A DNA stretch of 49,604 nt, from the IMG/VR virus record IMGVR_UViG_2049941000_000719; one strand, 5' to 3'. The notes below the pieces were generated by a model. The model made no database searches. It worked only from the letters and a program-made list of their open reading frames with translations, and had not been told where the DNA came from. Origin of the DNA: an uncultured virus (IMG/VR IMGVR_UViG_2049941000_000719) (lineage: Duplodnaviria > Heunggongvirae > Uroviricota > Caudoviricetes). The translations under genes were made by a program, and so were the position numbers. Every line of letters begins with the position of its first letter. The first letter of the stretch is position 1. This document shows positions 15,425 through 40,610 of this stretch, piece after piece.

Positions 15425-15728
15425 GGTATTAAGTTTTAAAAGGAGAACACGGGGTGTTATTTTACNNNNNNNNNNCCCGTGTTCGGATGTAACAAACAGT
15501 TTCGATTTGTGAGATATTATGGGTGAATTCGACTTTTTTGGTGATCAATGCCTTAAGTAAAAGGTTTGGATGAATGGATGCATAGATATGAACGACAACC
15601 AATACANNNNNNNNNNNNNNNNNNNNNNNNNNNNNNNNNNNNNNNNNNNNNNNNNNNNNNNNNNNNNNNNNNNNNNNNNNNNNNNNNNNNNNNNNNNNNN
15701 NNNNNNNNNNNNNNNNNNNNNNNNACTA

Positions 15729-16007: not shown

Positions 16008-16196
16008 TCATGAACCAATCACCTTACCCTTCAGAAAACCGCTTTCCCGTATCTCCTCGACGGGCATGTTAATGTATTCCCATAACTCCTCATTACTCCA
16101 GAATGTAGTCTCAATGTAATGAAGGATGTTGCCGATGACCTCATTTGTGAGTTCAGAGCCTTCCTCGTCCTGAAGACGATACGCAATGATTTTCAT
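16008..16196 (-). CDS. Small acidic hypothetical protein
   Basis: MKIIAYRLQDEEG with AGGAGA RBS, downstream of promoter copy 16257-16276. Confidence 0.65.
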   Translation of the reverse strand: MKIIAYRLQDEEGSELTNEVIGNILHYIETTFWSNEELWEYINMPVEEIRESGFLKGKVIGS

Positions 16197-16256
16197 AATC
16201 TCTCCTTTCGGAGTTTTTTCACTGATTCTGTCTGACATGACAGATATTTTAGACGG

Positions 16257-16276
16257 CATCCTTTTTAAGTAAAACG
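16257..16276 (-). promoter_or_regulatory. Conserved promoter CGTTTTACTTAAAAAGGAT
   Basis: Copies also at 16979-16998, 17227-17246, 17424-17442, 17738-17756, 35034-35052; TATA-like TTAAAAA core. Confidence 0.7.
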
Positions 16277-16325
16277 CAGAGCACAAAATAAAATAAAGAA
16301 TCACAAACTAAAAAACACATAATAG

Positions 16326-16509
16326 GAGATGTCTTCCCATGAAAGGAAAGACACATAGTAATTATAAAACACTCCGTAAAGAGCATCCTATATATCCCCA
16401 TGAAATGGGGAACAGTGTAACCGAACATCATTCGATATGACGTTGAACTAACCAATCAGTTCTGTTCAAAATCCAAATGCCGGTTCATCCCCATGAACAT
16501 GGGGAACAC
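16326..16509 (-). CRISPR. Orphan degenerate type I-E-like mini-array (3 repeats; 65- and 33-nt spacers)
   Basis: Minus strand GTGTTCCCCATGTTCATGGGGATGAACCG (16509-16481), CTGTTCCCCATTTCATGGGGATATATAG (16415-16388), GTGTCTTTCCTTTCATGGGAAGACAT (from 16354); first resembles the E. coli I-E repeat; all keep a hairpin. Confidence 0.7.
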
Positions 16510-16521
16510 AGGAGTATGTGT

Positions 16522-16573
16522 ACAATACATCCTCGCGAGCTTTATTGATGTGACATTATCGGGGATGTATTGT
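16522..16573 (-). ncRNA. Stem-closed RNA unit 0
   Basis: ACAATACATCC/GGATGTATTGT inverted repeat, 24-nt loop, TTAAATAAA upstream; directly precedes the mini-array. Confidence 0.45.
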
Positions 16574-16649
16574 CTGTATAAACATATGACACTCATAGTA
16601 TTTATTTAATTCGCGGCAAAAATAGAAAAATCAGAAAAACTGCCGTCAA

Positions 16650-16698
16650 AAAAAACAGATTCTTTAACCGAGGTTGGTTGTTAAAGAGTCTGCTTTTT
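16650..16698 (-). terminator. Hairpin followed by T-run
   Basis: cagattctttaac / gttaaagagtctg imperfect inverted repeat flanked by A/T runs. Confidence 0.45.
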
Positions 16699-16835
16699 CC
16701 CTTTTTGTAAATCATTAGGGGTTATTCACCCCATGCATGACACATTATGGATGTAGAGTGCGCGGAAACGTGTGTTTCAAGGTACTTTTCGGTTTAGAGT
16801 GTGTATCCAGACGATTAATTCTATATGTGATGAGC

Positions 16836-16960
16836 ATCAATACACGCCCGATTTTGAGTCATAATCATCGAGTTCATTAGAGGATCTATTAGATTTAGAT
16901 GTTTAGGAGGATCTATTAGATTTAGATGTTCTGTCTGTAACTCTCTCGGAGTGTATTGAT
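16836..16960 (-). ncRNA. Stem-closed RNA unit 1
   Basis: ATCAATACAC/GTGTATTGAT 10-bp stem (extendable), promoter 16979-16998; loop has a 24-bp direct repeat. Confidence 0.6.
16880..16930. repeat. 24-bp direct repeat x2
   Basis: gaggatctattagatttagatgtt at 16880-16903 and 16907-16930. Confidence 0.9.
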
Positions 16961-17123
16961 TACACACATATACAACTTCATCCTTTTTAAGTAAAACGAT
17001 AATATCACCTCAAACCGGTAAAATCCATGAGATGCATCCCCCGAATACATGTGATTTTCCAAGAAAATATATGATCGGCGCGGCAGACAAACCCGGCAAA
17101 AATCAACTGCGGGAAAATTGAGA

Positions 17124-17209
17124 AATCAATACAATCAGTAGGTAAAAATCTCGTTTATCGATAGGGAGGTGTTAAACAATGCTTTCATCCAATGGCGATT
17201 GTATTGATT
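17124..17209 (-). ncRNA. Stem-closed RNA unit 2
   Basis: Perfect 13-bp AATCAATACAATC stem, 60-nt loop, promoter 17227-17246. Confidence 0.65.
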
Positions 17210-17299
17210 ACACAGTTATACAACTTCATCCTTTTTAAGTAATACGCTGAAAAACCCCGAAACCACGATATCAAATAAATTATCTTCAGAATGAGATGC

Positions 17300-17405
17300 A
17301 ATCAATACGGCAGATCTATAAATGAACAGCATGTAAAGAATTTGTGACTAAACTAACACAACACCAAGAACGGAAATATCTTGATATTTGACTGCCGTAT
17401 TGATT
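17300..17405 (-). ncRNA. Stem-closed RNA unit 3
   Basis: Perfect 14-bp AATCAATACGGCAG stem, 78-nt loop, promoter 17424-17442. Confidence 0.65.
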
Positions 17406-17466
17406 ACACATCTATATGCGCTGATCCTTTTTAAGTAACACGCAAAATAGGTAACTTTCCGAAAGA

Positions 17467-17542
17467 TAGCGGAGAGCGGATTTGAACCGCTGATACTCCG
17501 GATCATGAGTCCGACGGGTTGACCTAACTACCCCACCCCGCT
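17467..17542 (-). tRNA. tRNA-Met(CAT), archaeal initiator type
   Basis: Cloverleaf: AGCGGGG/CTCCGCT acceptor (A1:U72), GGGT/ACCC D-stem, TCGGA-CTCATGA-TCCGG, AGCGG-TTCAAAT-CCGCT, A73. Confidence 0.9.
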
Positions 17543-17597
17543 TTTTCGTATGAATCCCCCCGATATCCCGTGCACACTACATGCACATATAGGAAGT

Positions 17598-17626
17598 CAG
17601 TTTATCCCCATGTACACGGAATATGC
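17598..17626 (-). repeat. Solitary degenerate I-E-like CRISPR repeat
   Basis: Minus strand ATATTCCGTGTACATGGGGATAAACTG; ends in ATAAACTG handle-like octamer. Confidence 0.5.
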
Positions 17627-17629
17627 GGG

Positions 17630-17719
17630 AATCAATACACCCGATGTAAGAGATTTATCATGAATTTAATCCAGATGACAAGAAACCTATGTAATTGGCG
17701 CAGATCGTGTGTATTGATT
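17630..17719 (-). ncRNA. Stem-closed RNA unit 4
   Basis: 16-bp stem with one mismatch, 58-nt loop, promoter 17738-17756. Confidence 0.65.
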
Positions 17720-17779
17720 ACCCATATATACAACTTTATCCTTTTTAAGTAAAACGGAAAACAGCACCAAATTATAGAT

Positions 17780-17855
17780 ACGCGGAGAGCGGATTTGAAC
17801 CGCTGAATCTCGGATTTTGAGTCCGATGGATTGAACCTGACTTTCCCACTCCGCC
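17780..17855 (-). tRNA. Atypical tRNA, anticodon CAA, paralog of the tRNA-Met
   Basis: Identical T-arm, TCGGA-CTCAAAA-TCCGA anticodon arm, 5-nt variable loop, G1:G72 mismatch, U73. Confidence 0.75.
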
Positions 17856-17981
17856 ATGACAATCTGAATACTACTCCGAATTCCCCAATAACTGTATTTT
17901 CGGATAAATCATCATTGTAGGGATACTGAATTAATTATCGCTAATATGCTAATTAACCGGGTGATGATTATCCGGGTTGCA

Positions 17982-18009
17982 CAGTTTATAGGTGATCTGT
18001 GGGGAATTC
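17982..18009 (-). repeat. Highly degenerate solitary I-E-like repeat
   Basis: Minus strand GAATTCCCCACAGATCACCTATAAACTG; both ends kept, hairpin lost. Confidence 0.35.
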
Positions 18010-18046
18010 AGGGTAATACTAATGAAAATAATCCCATCCTCTTTCA

Positions 18047-18133
18047 ACCAATACAGCAGATTTTGTAATTACTTTTTAGGGGTATATTGTAGGTAAATTC
18101 TAAAAAGCGAAATTAACAACCCGCCGTATTGAT
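18047..18133 (-). ncRNA. Stem-closed RNA unit 5
   Basis: 13-bp stem fully paired only on minus strand (three G-U pairs), 61-nt loop; promoter position is in an N gap followed by AACGC. Confidence 0.6.
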
Positions 18134-18230
18134 CATANNNNNNNNNNAACGCTTGTGTACCTTCGCAGATTGACGATGCCGACGGCAAAATATATCCTTT
18201 ATCGACACTCATCACCTTTTACGGAATAAC

Positions 18231-24040: not shown

Positions 24041-24400
24041 ATGTCATTTTGGGCAGTAATTAATAGCGATAACAGGATACGGGGCACGGGATTCAATGCA
24101 TTCAGCGCATTAATCAGCGCAAATACCATCGATACCGACAATTATGATTTACCTGACCTTGACGATATCCCAAAAACGGGGATGATACACACCATCGCCG
24201 AATTAAAAGCAGGACTGGAAGGAACACCTTACAGATTTGAAAGAATTACAAAGGATGAATATTGGGAATTCGAGAATCAGAACGGAGAAAAAACCAATCT
24301 TATTTGCTGTATTGATGAATATCTTAAAGATGAGATGAAAAATAAGAGTGAAAAAGAAAAGAGAATATTTGTAAACGGTATTGTGCGCAGATTTTTCTGA
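24041..24400 (+). CDS. Hypothetical protein
   Basis: 119 aa ORF ending the plus-strand block. Confidence 0.6.
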   Translation: MSFWAVINSDNRIRGTGFNAFSALISANTIDTDNYDLPDLDDIPKTGMIHTIAELKAGLEGTPYRFERITKDEYWEFENQNGEKTNLICCIDEYLKDEMKNKSEKEKRIFVNGIVRRFF

Positions 24401-24821
24401 ACACAATCCCTNNNNNNNNNNNNNNNNNNNNNNNNNNNNNNNNNNNNNNNNNNNNNNNNNNNNNNNNNNNNNNNNNNNNNNNNNNNNNNNNNNNNNNNNN
24501 NNNNNNNNNNNNNNNNNNNNNNNNNNNNNNNNNNNNNNNNNNNNNNNNNNNNNNNNNNNNNNNNNNNNNNNNNNNNNNNNNNNNNNNNNNNNNNNNNNNN
24601 NNNNNNNNNNNNNNNNNNNNNNNNNNNNNNNNNNNNNNNNNNNNNNNNNNNNNNNNNNNNNNNNNNNNNNNNNNNNNNNNNNNNNNNNNNNNNNNNNNNN
24701 NNNNNNNNNNNNNNNNNNNNNNNNNNNNNNNNNNNNNNNNNNNNNNNNNNNNNNNNNNNNNNNNNNNNNNNNNNNNNNNNNNNNNNNNNNNNNNNNNNNN
24801 NNNNNNNNNNNNNNNNNNNNN

Positions 24822-25885
24822 GACAATTTGTTATATCCTGTGCAAATTAATCTATTAAGTCCGAGATTATGAAAATTTTTGATGAAATACCGCGTAAAAT
24901 TAGAACTATAAGGATTATCGCAATTACAATACACCGTCTTATCTTTAAAATACTTTGAATAATGTGATAATTCTTTTACAATATCGTTGTATTGTGTATA
25001 AAACTCATCATCTTTATTTTTTTGCGCGACAATTAAATTTGAATTATTTGCCATATCTCTCACCTAAAAAAGTATGATATATTTATTCAATCAGNNNNNN
25101 NNNNGATTTAAAATCACCATTGCCTAAAAGATATTTGGTATTTACCTCAATAAACTCATTCAATTTTATCTCAGATATATAAAAGACATCGATAGGAACC
25201 AATTTTCTTACTACATCGAGTATATAACCANNNNNNNNNNAATTTACACAAAGGAACAATCTTTCCAGAATCTATATTCAAAGAAGTAATCCATCGTGCA
25301 TTACCAAATTTCTTAAGAGTTTGTTCGGGGGGGGGCGAACAAAAGATATGCTTTTGATATTTGAATAATTACTTATTTTGACCTGTCCAGTTGATATATA
25401 TGGCAACACAACAGGATAACCCAAATGAATTATTAATGTAATAAGTATCAATTCCTTATTATACTTCATTAGTAATTCAAAATAATCAATAAATTTGGAA
25501 AAAGGAGGGTTTGTTACTACTATATCCGATTCTTTCAAATATGAANNNNNNNNNNCACCCAATTTGAGAGATTTGTCTGCACATCCGTGTTCAAATTATT
25601 TACCTGATAATCCTCCCAGTTCATGACACTGTTTTGAGAATTTTGAGAGATGCCATCGGCATTCCCGGCACCGCGACGGCGGATTAATAATCTTGCAAAA
25701 ATATTCTTATTTTTTATACACAAATCCGTTCGTAAAAAATCAATTATTTCAAATAAATCTGGATTATGATAATCAAGATAGGACATAGGAACTCCGATTA
25801 TACCATTATAATCAGGAATTTCACTTAAACGATTTACATTGATTATATCTGGATATCCATCATATGATTGATACTTATTTATGAG
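24822..25885 (-). CDS. EcoRI-family adenine DNA methyltransferase, in four out-of-order blocks with a C9 frameshift
   Basis: KDDEFYTQ..VYCNCDNP..SNF (24822-25054); LLGNGDFKS (25105-25230); DIVVTNPPFS (25241-25545); YDGYPDIINVN..GVPMSYLD..ARLLIRR (about 25670-25885). Confidence 0.8.
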
Positions 25886-25895
25886 NNNNNNNNNN

Positions 25896-26884
25896 TTCAG
25901 AATCGGGGGTTGATTAGGGATTCTTTCAAAGTTTAAGACCCCGAATTCTATGTTTTGTTCTTCAATCACTGCCTGCCCTACGTCATCCAATGACCGCAAA
26001 AGCCGGAGTTGTACCATGGAATTCTTGGGGAGAGACCCCGGAAACCAAATTCGGATTGGTAAACGCTCTTTTACACGGTAATCCAAAAGATTATCGTCAT
26101 GTGTGCTCCCGAAGACCGAAATATTATTTTTACGGAAGTGAATCATCGATTTCGCGAAATTACCCGTCAAATGGAACAATTTACCTGCCGGATAGGAGGG
26201 GGTCACCGTGTGCAGTTCATCCAGAATGATTGTCACATGCCGCCCTTGGGTCTCCTCAAGGAGAGTGTTGCAGAACTCGAACCACCAACTCGGAGGAGGG
26301 GCAAGAACTCCTTCACTCGGAACATCCTTGAGACACTGTAATTCCTGCTGAGCAAGCGTTTTCAGGATGCTTTCGCCCAAGTAGTATTCCGACGGTTCGT
26401 AAACCACATTTATACCCCCGATACGCATATGTTCCATAAGGTCGACAGGGGATTTGTAATGTTTTATCGTTAAATCATGGTTGATTTTTCTTTTTTTACC
26501 GAGAGAGACCTCCGTAAAAGTATAGTCGTCATTTTCATGTACATGAACCATGAGGGGCTTAGACCGCCCGTATTTGGGGAAAGACTTCTTCCAATTTTTG
26601 GGAATAAGGCAATTCCAGTGGTCATCACTCATTCCGCGGAGAATAACGGTCTCCGGGTCGGTATCTATCGATTTGAGAGCGTCCTTATCAAATTTTCGGA
26701 GATCGTGTTTTGAAACTCCGTAGGGGAGAGACCGGGTAAACTGCGCGCACTGCATAAGCAATGTAGATTTGCCGTGACCGAAAGCCCCTATAAGGTCGCA
26801 GAATGTCCCGCCCGTGCCGCAGATACCGTCATCATGTATGAGAAGATTTTCCCACAATTTCTGAGCGTGACGCGGATCAATCAT
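25896..26884 (-). CDS. P-loop ATPase, possibly FtsK/HerA-superfamily packaging or assembly type
   Basis: Walker A GAFGHGKST, Walker B VTIILDE, FRKNNISVFGSTH; C-terminus at gap. Confidence 0.75.
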
Positions 26885-28120: not shown

Positions 28121-28966
28121 ATGGATATTATTACAATTTTGTATCTGATATCGAGTGTCATTGTATTACTGAACCTGACCTTTGCCGCATATCTGGATAT
28201 CAAATATCGTCGGGTGCCGTTTCAGGCATGGTACCCGATGCTGATATTCTGCACCCCGCTTTCAGGGTTGTTTTATGCACAATCCATACTCACAAATTCG
28301 TATTTTGTAGTATATATCGGGCTTGTGATTATGTTTTGCGCGGCATTCTATATAATTTCGCGATACATGAAGACCCTTGGGGGCGCGGATGCATGGGCTT
28401 TGATATTTGTTACCTTATTTGTCCCGATTTTACCCCCCGCAACATTGGTTCCCGTTGCCACATCTTCGACAATAACCNNNNNNNNNNTTTTCCCGATTGC
28501 CGTAATTGTCTGCTTTGTAATTGCCGTGTGCGCTGTTCCGGCAGGTCTGTTGATACAGAACCTTATCAAGGGAGAAAAAGCCCCGTTACTCTACCTTCTG
28601 ACATGTCAGCACATCTCCGCCGAGGACATCCCCAACAAAATCGGATTCATCATGGAGAATATCACAGTTTCCGATGCTGAAGAGGGGGAGAGGGGCTGTG
28701 AGTCCGCAGATAAGAGAGAGGGGGATAGAGGGGGATACACACACACATATCTTAAGACCGCGGATTTTATAAAGAGAATTTTGAAAAAAGACCTCAAATA
28801 TCACACAAAATATCTCATAAACCATATAGAGGTTTATGAGGAAAAGATGACAAATTATTCAAAAGCCGGGGAAATTTGGATAACATACACCATACCGCTG
28901 ATACTGCCGATGACGGCAGGTTATGTAATGGCATATATTGCCGGATATATCCTGTTATTTAACTGA
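28121..28966 (+). CDS. Archaeal A24 prepilin/prearchaellin peptidase (FlaK/PibD-like)
   Basis: AYLDIKYRRVP (first Asp), GGAD (GxGD-type), multiple TMs, C-terminal IWITYTIPLILPMTAG. Confidence 0.9.
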   Translation: MDIITILYLISSVIVLLNLTFAAYLDIKYRRVPFQAWYPMLIFCTPLSGLFYAQSILTNSYFVVYIGLVIMFCAAFYIISRYMKTLGGADAWALIFVTLFVPILPPATLVPVATSSTITXXXXFPIAVIVCFVIAVCAVPAGLLIQNLIKGEKAPLLYLLTCQHISAEDIPNKIGFIMENITVSDAEEGERGCESADKREGDRGGYTHTYLKTADFIKRILKKDLKYHTKYLINHIEVYEEKMTNYSKAGEIWITYTIPLILPMTAGYVMAYIAGYILLFN

Positions 28967-34478: not shown

Positions 34479-35033
34479 GCATTACACCTCTCTGAAAATA
34501 TTAGGATACCCAAAAAAATTGACTCCAGTCTCCACCGACTACTTTCTAAATTCCGGGATGGATACCCCCTCTCAAACCCCTCTCCAATAAATTTCAGANN
34601 NNNNNNNNTCAAGGGGGGTGTCTGGATTTTTTTGAGAAGTATGTCGGTGGCGTTAGGAGTCACTTCAGAAAGTGTATAAAAAAACTTTTCGGTTTGACTC
34701 GACACTATGGATAAACTATATTGCTCATCAACTTCATAGTAAATATTGTCCCGTGGGGATCTGGCGATCCTTCCTAACGGTGACAGGAAATGAGAATCAT
34801 CACATANNNNNNNNNNTACCATCTATATCAATTATTCTCATTTTTTCCCCCTTTACCAACAATAGTGATAATGCCGGAATTCAATAATTCCGACTTACAC
34901 TTTTCAATAGTACTTTCCGAAGGGAATGCGCTCGTTAATTGTCCGAGTGCATAAATCATGTTCAGAGCTGTTGCGTCAAACTGCTCCTGTGTCACATATA
35001 TCATATCTGTACCTCTGTAATGTTGTAACTTTG

Positions 35034-35052
35034 ATCCTTTTTAAGTAAAACG
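35034..35052 (-). promoter_or_regulatory. Copy of the CGTTTTACTTAAAAAGGAT promoter
   Basis: Exact 19-mer upstream of the RHH-recombinase-MTase operon. Confidence 0.7.
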
Positions 35053-35981: not shown

Positions 35982-36736
35982 TCAATNNNNNNNNNNNNNN
36001 NNNNNNNNNNNNNNNNNNNNNNNNNNNNNNNNNNNNTATCCGTTATTGCGGATCATCTCCAAAGAGTTGATTATCCTGTTGAATCTGCATGTGGTGTTAT
36101 AGACTTCATCCGCCATCTCCTCCATGCGTGCTTTTGTACATATGAGTATTTTTAGAAGTTTTACATCTCCTTCTGACAGTGTGTTACAGGCATTCATACG
36201 GCTCTCAAGCTCGTTTATTTTTATATCCGTGATGTATGCTTTTGCACCAATTGCCATATAAGTGCCGTCCATCTGATCCCATAATGTGAACTCTGCAATG
36301 GCTTTCAGCATATTCTGTCCTTCGGGGCTGATTTCACAGCGATCATTATCTACCATTTTCTCTCACCCCCTACTCTGAACACTTCATTCAAATNNNNNNN
36401 NNNATCGTCAAACACTTCGCGATTATAAATATCATCAATACCCGCATAGATATCCATAATACTATCAATATCACGACAAATTCTGTCAGTGAGTTTTTCC
36501 GTATCTGTTTTTACGCATTTCAGAATGTCCAGAACACCTGTGTTGTTTGGGGATGTGTCTTTTTTGACCACATCCTCCATACGACATATCACATCGTCAA
36601 TTTCCTTAATCTTGTCAAACAATGCTTTCGTTGCGGCACTTTCAGCCCAAAATTCATACTCTGTAATTCCGTCAAGTGCAGTCATGGCTTCACGGGATAT
36701 CTCATATGAGTTGATTGTTCTTCGTTCTCCGGTCAT
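35982..36736 (-). CDS. Two family G acidic helical proteins
   Basis: EISPEGQNMLKAIAEF and EISREAMTALDGITEY; LKILIC/LDILKC. Confidence 0.7.
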
Positions 36737-38741: not shown

Positions 38742-40610
38742 TTACCACTGTCCGATAACTGCGGGTCTTTCTATCTGCCTTGTCTGACGGATTCCCGATA
38801 TTTCGTGCGTTACCGCATCATATGTCGAGATTGCCTCATCGAGTTTTTTTATGGATTCTTCCAACGGATGAATCCGCATGGCAAGTGTGTAATACAATCT
38901 CTCATCTTCGGGAACAGGAGGAATATTTTGGGTATTCCTCATCTGAATAAGCTGATTGATATTCTCCATCACTTTAAGCGTGCTCATACGGTAATCATTG
39001 ATGTAGTGTCTAATTGATTTAAACCGTATCAAATCGGTCTCATAATTCCTGAATATCGTTATATCTTTAAGGATGTCACAGGCATCTTCGCTGATATACT
39101 CCGCAACATCCGGGTTTTCGGTAGTGTTATTTAACGCCATTTTAATCACTCTCGGTTTTATAATTCTGCAAATTCCCAAATTATATCGGGGATGTGCCTT
39201 TCTTGGAATTTATTCAATTTTTCATCAACCTTATTCAATTTTTTTAAGAACTTTTCCAACTGTTTGTTTGTGCAATCATCCAACTCATACGACTTCGGGG
39301 TGTAGCATGATGCCATCAATCTCAACATACAATTGATTTCCTCAAGTTTGTTAGTAATACCCTCAATGATTTTTTGTCGTTTTTGTTCCTCTTCGGGTGT
39401 CAGCTTTTTCCGGGGCATCGTCGTCACTCCTGTGTTAATAGTTTTATCTCGTCGATTTTTTCATCATTTGAGTTAAATACGATAATACTATCAAAATACT
39501 CATTCACATCATCAATAACAACATTGTTAAACCTGATACTGCACGCGGTGCCGTTGCTGTTAAAGATAAAATCCTTACAATCCTCAACAAACAGATTATT
39601 TAATCTGCCGCACTGTTTTTTGTTGACTGCGAATGCCTTAATCTGCTGTGCCATTTCTCTAAGTTCAGTTATCGTTTTCATAATATCTCCTAAAATCTAA
39701 CGGTAATTTATATCGTCGTCACTCCTGCGGGTCATCTTTGAATGCTTTGCCTATTATGGTTTGATCCGACTGATAAAGGATGGGATTGTCTGCCAATCTG
39801 CTGATGTGACGGGACAGCTCCAAGATTTCACCGAATAAAAGAAACAGTCTTTCTTCGTTAATATCGGGGTCAGTATGATAGAATTGCTTTAATTCTTTTA
39901 AACCCTGCTTTGCGCGGTTAAAATCCTTACATATTATATCGATCATCTTGTCGATGTCGGATATCATGTGTTCTTTTTTGTTCACTGTTTACACCTCTTT
40001 TGTATCGTTATCCTCTTGTTTTATCAGACATGCTCTGATTTTCTCAACGTCTTCTTCCGAGAGGTATGTGAGTGTCGGGCAGTTTATATCATCCGTGATT
40101 TTCAACAGGAAAAATATTACCGCAAAAGACACGATTCCTCCAAGCGCAATCATAACCGGGTGAAATTTCATTATGTAAAATGCAATTGCCGCAGTCATAC
40201 CGCAAAATGCCGAGATTGCCGCCAATTCCCATACCGGTGTTTTAAACACAAATCTTTCCACCATTATTCCTCATCCCCGGCATCCCCGTTATCTGACAAA
40301 ATATCTATTTGCGGGTCACAATCCGACATTGAGTATCTTTCATCAAATACACAGAGCACTTCTTTGAACATATCCAACTCGCAATAATGACATTTCAAAC
40401 AGGTGTCCGAGTAATGATCTGCATCTACATATTTGGTATAAATTGAGAGATTTCTCTCAATATCTTCAAAAATACTCTGTATCNNNNNNNNNNGGAACAC
40501 CATACAGAAAACAACTGTGGATTCTTAAAGAATGCGGTATATAATTCATCAATAATGCCTTTTTTCGTAATGCTTTTCTTTTCGATTTTAATTAAACTCA
40601 TTTTTTCCAC
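38742..40610 (-). CDS. Run of small hypothetical ORFs
   Basis: Coupled ORFs 38742, 39158, 39424, 39719, 39989 (2 TM), 40264; 39158 paralogous to 43355. Confidence 0.6.

Follow-up and report, generated by a model that had tools for sequence, protein, structure and literature searches.

The window analyzed here is a stretch of 49,604 nt (49.6 kb, interrupted by 60 N runs) recorded in IMG/VR as IMGVR_UViG_2049941000_000719, and its source is an archaeal mobile element or virus, virus-like or integrative and uncultured, of the bovine gut or rumen. The region from 16200 to 18230 is a gene-free gap with a leftward gene block on one side and a rightward block on the other, the strand composition flips there, and the gap contains two minus-strand transfer RNA (tRNA) genes and a series of repeated units. 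At least seven units were counted in all, six of which are visible (U0 to U5), with a seventh (U6) under an N run. Our overall reading is that the units make up a new RNA family of a rumen archaeal mobile element, its members being small structured RNAs or leaders, and that one of them, U2 (17123-17246, minus strand, comprising box, arms and interior), might be an anti-Shine-Dalgarno RNA which pairs with Shine-Dalgarno (SD) sequences, like the small RNAs (sRNAs) of Methanosarcina mazei that act against ribosome-binding sites (RBSs); the probability we attach to this role of U2 is about 0.35 to 0.45.

The interior, or loop, of U2 (17137-17196, minus strand; RNA sense GCCAUUGGAUGAAAGCAUUGUUUAACACCUCCCUAUCGAUAAACGAGAUUUUUACCUACU) lies exactly between the inverted arms 17116-17136 and 17197-17217. 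On the plus strand it contains GGGAGGTG at 17164-17171, then 7 nt, an ATG at 17179-17181 and CTTTCATCCAATGGC up to 17196, and the minus-strand RNA of 17164-17181 presents CACCUCCC (the complement of 17164-17171), a U-rich stretch and CAU in the apical loop of an inner hairpin. An earlier inspection of the letters, made without database searches and termed here the sequence-only reading, had described the plus strand as a strong SD with a start codon and the minus-strand RNA as displaying CACCUCC and CAU; this was found to be present and above chance, the binding of U2 RNA to the SD consensus having a p of 0.014 (500 dinucleotide shuffles). The heptamer CACCUCC exactly matches the 16S rRNA 3′ end of all three complete Thermoplasmatota genomes read (...GGAUCACCUCC), and it is predicted to be exposed, with a mean unpaired probability of 0.87 in U2 against 0.41 for the whole RNA. 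A homologous interior in unit A of the relative L037 (L037_A) gave a mean unpaired probability of 0.99 for the same heptamer and a p of 0.004 for SD-consensus binding, while the plus-sense controls gave 0.59 (U2) and 0.24 (L037_A).

The corresponding p values for the other interiors of the window were 0.20 (U0), 0.48 (U1), 0.53 (U3), 0.45 (U4) and 0.45 (U5), and a Fisher combination over the six window loops gave 0.12. Under a lenient rule, with a 4-nt SD word followed after 4-10 nt by ATG, GTG or TTG on the plus strand, two of the six loops qualified (U2, and U5 with a TTG and then an immediate TAG), where shuffles averaged 1.40 (P = 0.42); with ATG as the only start, one of the six loops qualified against 0.65 in shuffles (P = 0.52). 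The strings that the sequence-only reading had quoted for units 1 to 5 were all present where it had placed them. Its broader view, that the loops are antisense to translation-initiation regions, finds support only in U2 with its exposed and conserved anti-SD word, and four of the five units it cited are at chance; because the SD and start signals of the other units are at chance, the observation stands for U2 alone.

The affinity of U2 for initiation regions was also observed in duplex energies. The apical 30-mer of U2 bound 83 initiation regions of the element with a mean of -11.84 kcal/mol, against -6.93 kcal/mol for 249 windows from the interiors of open reading frames (ORFs) (Mann-Whitney p = 3e-20), and the mean duplex energy of U2 over 149 candidate starts of the window beat 59 of 60 shuffles. 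This excess is a generic anti-SD effect, and the exposed and conserved anti-SD word fits an action on ribosome-binding sites.

Comparison with relatives revealed that the interiors differ strongly in their conservation. Against L039, which is 93% identical overall, the U2 interior showed 0 differences in 60 positions and the U3 interior 1 in 78, where the neighbouring coding sequence showed 7 in 219; the stems differ at 0-3% of positions, and the interiors of U1 and U4 at 33% and 10%, respectively. The L037_A interior is homologous to that of U2 (z = 4.9, reached by 0 of 200 shuffles), the two having in common the blocks GGAUGAAA, UUUA(A/G)CACCUCC and CGAUAA. L037_A keeps CACCUCC, has diverged in the flanks and has lost the CAU facing the start codon; it is the one diverged homologue in which the motif is seen to be conserved. 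In a natural variant from run X6, both the SD word and the ATG are retained, with one additional nt in the spacer and five additional nt (+4 and +1) just after the ATG. L037 (1-1791) carries its U2-type interior at the position held by U6 in L039, and interiors thus appear, from this comparison, to move between scaffold positions.

The scaffold itself is shared by the whole series. On the minus strand, a unit consists of a box CGTTTTACTTAAAAAGGAT, a constant 17-18 nt, (G)UAAUCAAUAC, an interior of 24-105 nt and then GUAUUGAUU. The closing stem AAUCAAUAC/GUAUUGAUU is conserved in all the units and its two arms are inverted, not direct, whilst the interiors are mutually unrelated, with z > 2.5 in only 2 of 45 pairs. 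The box was found in five of the six visible units (U1-U5), U0 having none in the window, and the exact 15-mer TTACTTAAAAAGGAT occurs in six copies in the window, all on the minus strand, where 0.33 are expected and none of 100 shuffles reached six. The distance from box to arm is constant (U1-U4, and U5 and U6 of L039). Two copies of the box lie 30-60 nt upstream of the SD and ATG of minus-strand protein genes, one at 16258-16276 (SD GGAGAG, ATG at 16196) and the other at 35034-35052 (SD GAGGT, ATG at 35004), and in the relative L035 the box is followed by hairpin B, about 20 nt and then the SD and ATG of a 110-aa ORF. Because the box precedes minus-strand genes with SD and ATG in the window and an ORF with SD and ATG in L035, it is taken to be a promoter that fires leftward, and it is of the archaeal B recognition element (BRE)/TATA type. 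Archaeal transcripts start at an established spacing from the TATA box, and this spacing would put the start of the transcript on the first bases of the 5′ arm. In U2, the box is CGTATTACTTAAAAAGGAT (17228-17246, minus strand), the 5′ arm of the closing stem, with the predicted start at its first bases, is AAUCAAUACAAUC (17197-17210, minus strand), and the 3′ arm is GAUUGUAUUGAUU (17123-17136, minus strand).

Folding of all six window units gave z values from -3.1 to -6.2, and for each of them 0 of 200 shuffles were as stable. The stems were compared across ten units, namely the six of the window with L039_U6, L035_A, L035_B and L037_A, and revealed an invariant core beside stem positions +6 to +10, which vary in sequence and remain paired; L035_A carries a compensatory double change in the core (CAAUGC/GCAUUG). 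The stems of these ten units contain 24 G.U pairs against 9 A/C mismatches. U3 is more stable on the minus strand (-39.1 vs -29.6 kcal/mol on the plus strand), as is U5 (-29.7 vs -16.9 kcal/mol), and both tRNAs share the minus strand with the units. Because of the covariation of the stems, the G.U bias and the direction of the promoter, the units are most likely transcribed as minus-strand RNAs, as the sequence-only reading had also assumed. As a hint of expression, two stretches over the interior and tail of U1, 16693-16932 and 16709-16898, are represented among contigs from the RNA libraries of two studies, and one contig covers 17877-18096 (interior of U5 and the leader of the tRNA with anticodon CAA). 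With the Rfam covariance models, the two tRNAs alone reached the gathering score, and nothing credible was obtained on the units in E-value mode.

The mechanism we propose begins with the box, which would place the transcript start on the conserved 5′ (G)UAAUCAAUAC in most units. This sequence would pair with GUAUUGAUU 24-105 nt downstream, and the 5′ end of the RNA would be locked in a long closing stem because the transcript starts on the very sequence that pairs with GUAUUGAUU. Units appear to stand alone, to lead into tRNAs (U4, U5, L035_A) or to lead into mRNAs (L035_B, probably U6), and because of these three settings they may be viewed as small structured RNAs or 5′ leaders built on one scaffold. 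U2 itself would be transcribed up to a putative 3′ end, and its RNA would hold CACCUCC, which is also the anti-SD tail of 16S rRNA, unpaired at the tip of the inner hairpin. It might then pair with ribosome-binding sites of the GGAGGUG type in competition with the 30S subunit, and the outcome would be translational repression of many or some SD-led mRNAs, whether of the host, a competitor or the element. For the remaining interiors, no recognisable target was found in the window, the relatives or the Thermoplasmatota genomes.

An archaeal parallel is provided by sRNA154 and sRNA41 of M. mazei, which are described as trans-acting RNAs whose anti-RBS sequences mask RBSs and repress translation initiation, sRNA41 masking several sites within polycistronic mRNAs (PMC5867862). 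What is proposed for U2 resembles them in the archaeal anti-RBS sequence; as far as that account describes them, however, the M. mazei sRNAs are chromosomal, single-copy and experimentally tested, whereas U2 lies on a mobile element, is predicted from its sequence and belongs to an array with a common promoter and closing stem. Structured small RNAs linked with tRNA genes are found in viruses of other domains of life, in the species 1 and 2 RNAs of phage T4 and the TMERs of murid herpesvirus 68. As in those viruses, structured RNAs are here interleaved and probably co-processed with tRNAs (U4 with tRNA-Met, U5 with the CAA tRNA), but biogenesis differs and no sequence or fold is in common, so that the analogy is one of layout. 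The C-rich loop sRNAs of Staphylococcus aureus pair with the SD through a C-rich word left unpaired in a hairpin loop, and U2 likewise exposes a C-rich word in its loop. Those RNAs are bacterial and conserve the loop motif across paralogues, whereas here the stem is conserved, the loops differ and the motif belongs to U2-type interiors; the Rsa family and RNAIII are the examples described with such UCCC loops (PMC2790875).

The unit family is real and, as far as the literature search goes, undescribed: promoter-anchored hairpin RNAs, which stand alone or act as leaders of tRNAs and mRNAs. To our knowledge, regulatory RNAs encoded by archaeal viruses are almost unknown, and a literature search, supplements aside, found no such array described in an archaeal virus. 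Should U2 act in this way, an inhibitor of SD-dependent initiation would lie ready in a rumen methanogen virus or integrative element, within a modular array beside the element's own tRNAs, giving a testable handle on how such elements reprogramme methanogen translation. The scaffold of promoter and closing stem makes a clean new RNA family that can be modelled and searched for as rumen archaeal viruses accumulate.

Several observations weigh against this reading. The Fisher combination over nine independent interiors did not reach significance (p = 0.10; plus-sense control 0.94), and because the combined anti-SD test is not significant the motif is to be regarded as a property of the U2-type units alone; a single heptamer within about 370 nt of interior sequence is also a modest signal. 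When the heptamer was held fixed, its flanks added little, as 18 of 300 flank-shuffles reached the real mean, and the best target of U2, a GTG start at 39985 (-22.9 kcal/mol), was equalled by 46 of 300 shuffles, which points to no specific target. On the structural side, L035_B is no more stable than its shuffles (z = -0.66), the plus strand gives the better fold for U1 and both strands of U2 fold equally well, and the transcript start is predicted through spacing alone. Among the RNA-library contigs none falls on U2, the two RNA runs being of low depth and saying nothing on absence; the contigs that do cover units carry neither strand nor end information and might come from DNA carry-over. 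Finally, stop-codon usage is the sole basis of the host assignment given below.

The alternative that survives best, which we consider possible although clearly less probable than the anti-SD role, is that the hairpins are purely structural 5′ modules serving end protection, processing or stability, with interiors of no sequence-specific role and with the SD-like word of U2 arising by accident and then conserved, or belonging to a local fold. The variety of settings, with units before tRNAs, before mRNAs or on their own, would be expected of such modules, as would interiors that are unrelated and range from 24 to 105 nt, the absence of significance in the combined anti-SD test, and the tolerance of a 27-nt duplication in U1 and of indels in a natural variant. 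End protection, however, needs no interior of 60-100 nt, the interiors of U2 and U3 vary less than the coding sequence beside them in the L039 comparison above, and a relative with diverged flanks still has the exact heptamer of the 16S tail, unpaired.

A bolder extension of the anti-SD role, which we regard as improbable, takes the array as a set of scaffolded guide RNAs, in which the closing stem AAUCAAUAC/GUAUUGAUU would be the handle for a viral or host protein and the interiors would be exchangeable guides, with U2 aimed at ribosome-binding sites generally, to shut off the host or take over its translation, and the remaining guides directed to transcripts of the host or of competitors beyond the sequences searched here.

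Slightly less probable still is the model of the sequence-only reading, in which the interiors are captured 5′ ends of host-defence or competitor mRNAs, each antisense to the gene it came from. U2 does complement a consensus initiation region along its full length, from the SD through the A-rich spacer to the AUG, the interiors are as unrelated to one another as different guides might be, and some of them change fast between close relatives, as in U1 and U4 against L039. The SD and start signals of the interiors other than U2, however, are at chance, the complement of the AUG is not conserved in the U2 homologue L037_A, and no interior matched a gene start above shuffles in the window, in L035, L037 and L039 or in 261 genomes of the probable host order. 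When five interiors were compared with the remainder of the window by short-word BLAST, the best matches were 10-15 nt long and were equalled by 8 to 98 of 100 shuffles; because it has the same sense as the local genes, a 13-nt match of U2 at 36617-36629 is not antisense. The best duplex energies of the interiors against the 149 candidate starts were equalled by 11 to 50 of 60 shuffles, and matches of ten interiors to the coding parts of the window, L035, L037 and L039 by 3 to 58 of 60. The genome searches cover Thermoplasmatota, leaving hosts outside it, such as Methanobrevibacter, beyond their scope, and the host itself is inferred. When the array was searched by BLAST in 401 genomes sampled from the Thermoplasmatota, the matches listed were all tRNA-Met-like sequences, at no more than 84% identity. 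For the probable host order, an mcrA-positive centre was chosen (6 of 101 genomes positive) and its whole order, 261 genomes, was searched at E ≤ 1; all the matches at E ≤ 0.001 fell on the two tRNAs, while the interiors gave only E ≥ 0.006. Two 20/20 matches to the U1 interior lie inside long ORFs, and about 1.6 such matches are expected by chance in the 261 genomes. The comparison of loops with gene starts that the sequence-only reading had proposed thus shows no excess over shuffles wherever it can be made, and the idea of captured mRNA ends that silence defence or competitor genes finds no support.

About equally unlikely is a role of the repeats at the DNA level, either as a replication origin with iterons or as recombination joints made of promoter and stem. 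The position of the array in a divergent intergenic region where strand composition flips, the repetition of box and arm five to seven times, the different numbers of units and tRNAs in L035 (1-1485), where two units and one tRNA lie between the same divergent genes against six visible units and two tRNAs in the window, and the different genomic position of the U2-type interior in L037 would all accord with it. The stems, however, have 24 G.U pairs to 9 A/C mismatches, pairing favours one strand, and the distance from box to arm is fixed. The cassettes termed PeSL (promoter-early stem-loop) in T4-type phages, whose stem-loop serves as a terminator ahead of the promoter (PMC2839356), offer a likeness, with repeated modules of a strong promoter and a stem-loop clustered in a virus accessory region as possible recombination joints. 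Their stem-loops, as described there, are small terminators and the cassettes flank ORFs, whereas the arms here follow the promoter, enclose a long interior of 24-105 nt and show covariation of the RNA type; there is no ORF in most units. In runs X5 and X6 the layout is collinear with that of the window, and no shuffling or recombination of units was seen among close strains, whereas PeSL cassettes recombine. The existence of strains with fewer units was considered and rejected, since the loose ends belong to contigs that run on through the box of U5 itself and to a contig that spans from the U6 box to the U1 box.

It is very unlikely that the plus strand is the functional one, with the SD and ATG of U2 starting a protein of 19 codons and the minus-strand hairpin RNA as its cis-antisense regulator, in the manner of type I toxin-antitoxin repeats such as Ibs/Sib, even though the 8-nt SD, the 7-nt spacer, the ATG and the 19-codon ORF are in place and the locus is tandem and multi-copy. 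An ATG-led ORF with an SD occurs in only one of the six window units (U2), three-frame translation of the antisense strand of nine units gave no common ORF with a start, the ATG is absent in the L037 homologue, the insertions after the ATG in X6 rewrite the whole peptide, no convincing plus-strand promoter was seen by eye, and the peptide is not hydrophobic. Plus-strand micropeptides, which the sequence-only reading had named as an outcome that would speak against it, are likewise without support, given the lack of a conserved ORF and the frame-shifting insertion in X6.

Equally remote is the idea that U2 is a decoy of the 16S 3′ tail which titrates a protein or nuclease recognising that tail: the heptamer is identical to the tail and GGAU precedes it in both U2-type interiors, as in the GGAUCACCUCC of 16S rRNA, but GGAU and CACCUCC lie 15-17 unrelated bases apart, the likeness to helix 45 goes no further and no partner emerged as a candidate. 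Other candidates were rejected, most of them on inspection by eye: a CRISPR or viral mini-array (the arms are inverted, not direct repeats, and no cas gene was among the 30 ORFs scanned), bulge-helix-bulge splicing sites (by eye, the stems lack paired 3-nt bulges), C/D-box sRNAs (the words GGAUGA and CUGA occur in U2 but not in other units, and there is no Rfam match), integron attC-like sites (by eye, perfect duplexes without cassette ORFs), a retron msr/msd (no reverse transcriptase among the ORFs scanned) and a mimic of CRISPR repeats acting as an RNA anti-CRISPR (by eye, the units do not resemble the Cas12a-type repeat).

The remaining units are all on the minus strand. U0 forms a hairpin at 16522-16573 with a CAAUAC/GUAUUG core and a 24-nt interior (z = -4.36) and has no canonical box; its counterpart in L035 has a box and the compensatory CAAUGC/GCAUUG core. 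U1 extends over 16693-16998 with its tail, with the box at 16980-16998, arms at 16945-16962 and 16836-16851, the interior at 16852-16944 and the tail at 16693-16835. U3 (17297-17442) has its box at 17424-17442, arms at 17392-17408 and 17297-17313 and a 78-nt interior (z = -6.24), while U4 (17627-17756) has its box at 17738-17756, arms at 17704-17722 and 17627-17645, a 58-nt interior and a tRNA-Met downstream on the same strand. U5 (18048-18137) has arms at 18122-18135 and 18048-18061, with at least three G.U pairs that are valid solely on the minus-strand RNA, and the CAA tRNA downstream; its box is masked by the N run 18138-18147 and is visible in a contig of run X5 and in L039. By collinearity with L039, U6 would lie under the N run 15607-15724 with a box, a AAUCAAUAU/GUAUUGGUU stem and an interior of about 70 nt, and the structure of the run contigs agrees with this placement.

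In the U1 interior, a perfect 24-nt repeat with a spacing of 27 nt was observed at 16880-16930, which doubles a CCUC-containing segment as a 27-nt tandem duplication; L039 has a single copy. The U1 tail is the most conserved non-stem stretch of the region, with 1 of 143 positions differing from L039; a GGGGUGAAUAACCCC hairpin marks its end, and this tail is a candidate for the functional body of the U1 RNA. Repeated CCCCATGnnCATGGGG-type palindromes were found at 16334-16351, 16396-16410, 16489-16504 and 17605-17619, with two similar copies after unit A in L035, and may be a protein-binding site or small hairpins. Interleaved with the units is the tRNA-Met (CAU) at 17467-17542, and its paralogue, the 76-nt class I tRNA with anticodon CAA, lies at 17780-17855, both on the minus strand. 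ARAGORN labels the latter Leu(CAA), yet it lacks a long variable arm and is a close paralogue of tRNA-Met(CAU); it is kept in L039.

The host is probably a pyrrolysine-using methanogen of the Methanomassiliicoccales, an assignment drawn from the stop codons. Among 52 distinct ORFs of at least 60 codons with SD and ATG and without N, 51 have a stop, which is TGA in 29, TAA in 22 and TAG in none. TAG stops are reported to be as rare as 1.6% in Ca. M. alvus of the gut Methanomassiliicoccales (PMC4153887). The zero count suggests that TAG is either read or avoided by the host, as it is in these gut archaea, and the assignment is made because TAG goes unused as a stop, matching the rarity of TAG stops in that group. 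A homologue search and an Atlas search, both with the A24 peptidase, showed that this protein is archaeal and named no host. DNA of the element is present in gut metagenomes, bovine and others, from 12 studies.

A search for relatives among phage records with blastn in distant mode gave zero matches, and searches for IMG/VR loci with two ORF proteins found no relative. Pattern scans of IMG/VR gave 1, 2 and 0 loci, of which L001 was a chance match on reading and L043 and L044 were left out, and a pattern scan of genome contigs gave 30 single-match loci, nearly all bacterial and taken as chance.

By Pfam and PHROGs, the window encodes a tyrosine integrase with a zinc ribbon, several DNA methylases and an archaeal A24 prepilin-type peptidase, and most of its other ORFs have no family match in either. 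Two adjoining minus-strand ORFs, 24203-25063 and 25535-26884, match the N-terminal and C-terminal parts of an EcoRI-type adenine methylase model; because N runs lie between and inside both, a split gene and masking look alike here. A group of small genes, on the minus strand at 249, 795, 7359, 8636, 9176, 10706, 11202, 11830 and 14749 and on the plus strand at 28121-28966, begin alike, with a strong GGGGG/GGAG SD, an ATG and codons like GTn/GCA/ACA ACA AAG/AGA AAA, and they may be a family of pilin-like substrates of the encoded A24 prepilin/preflagellin-type peptidase.

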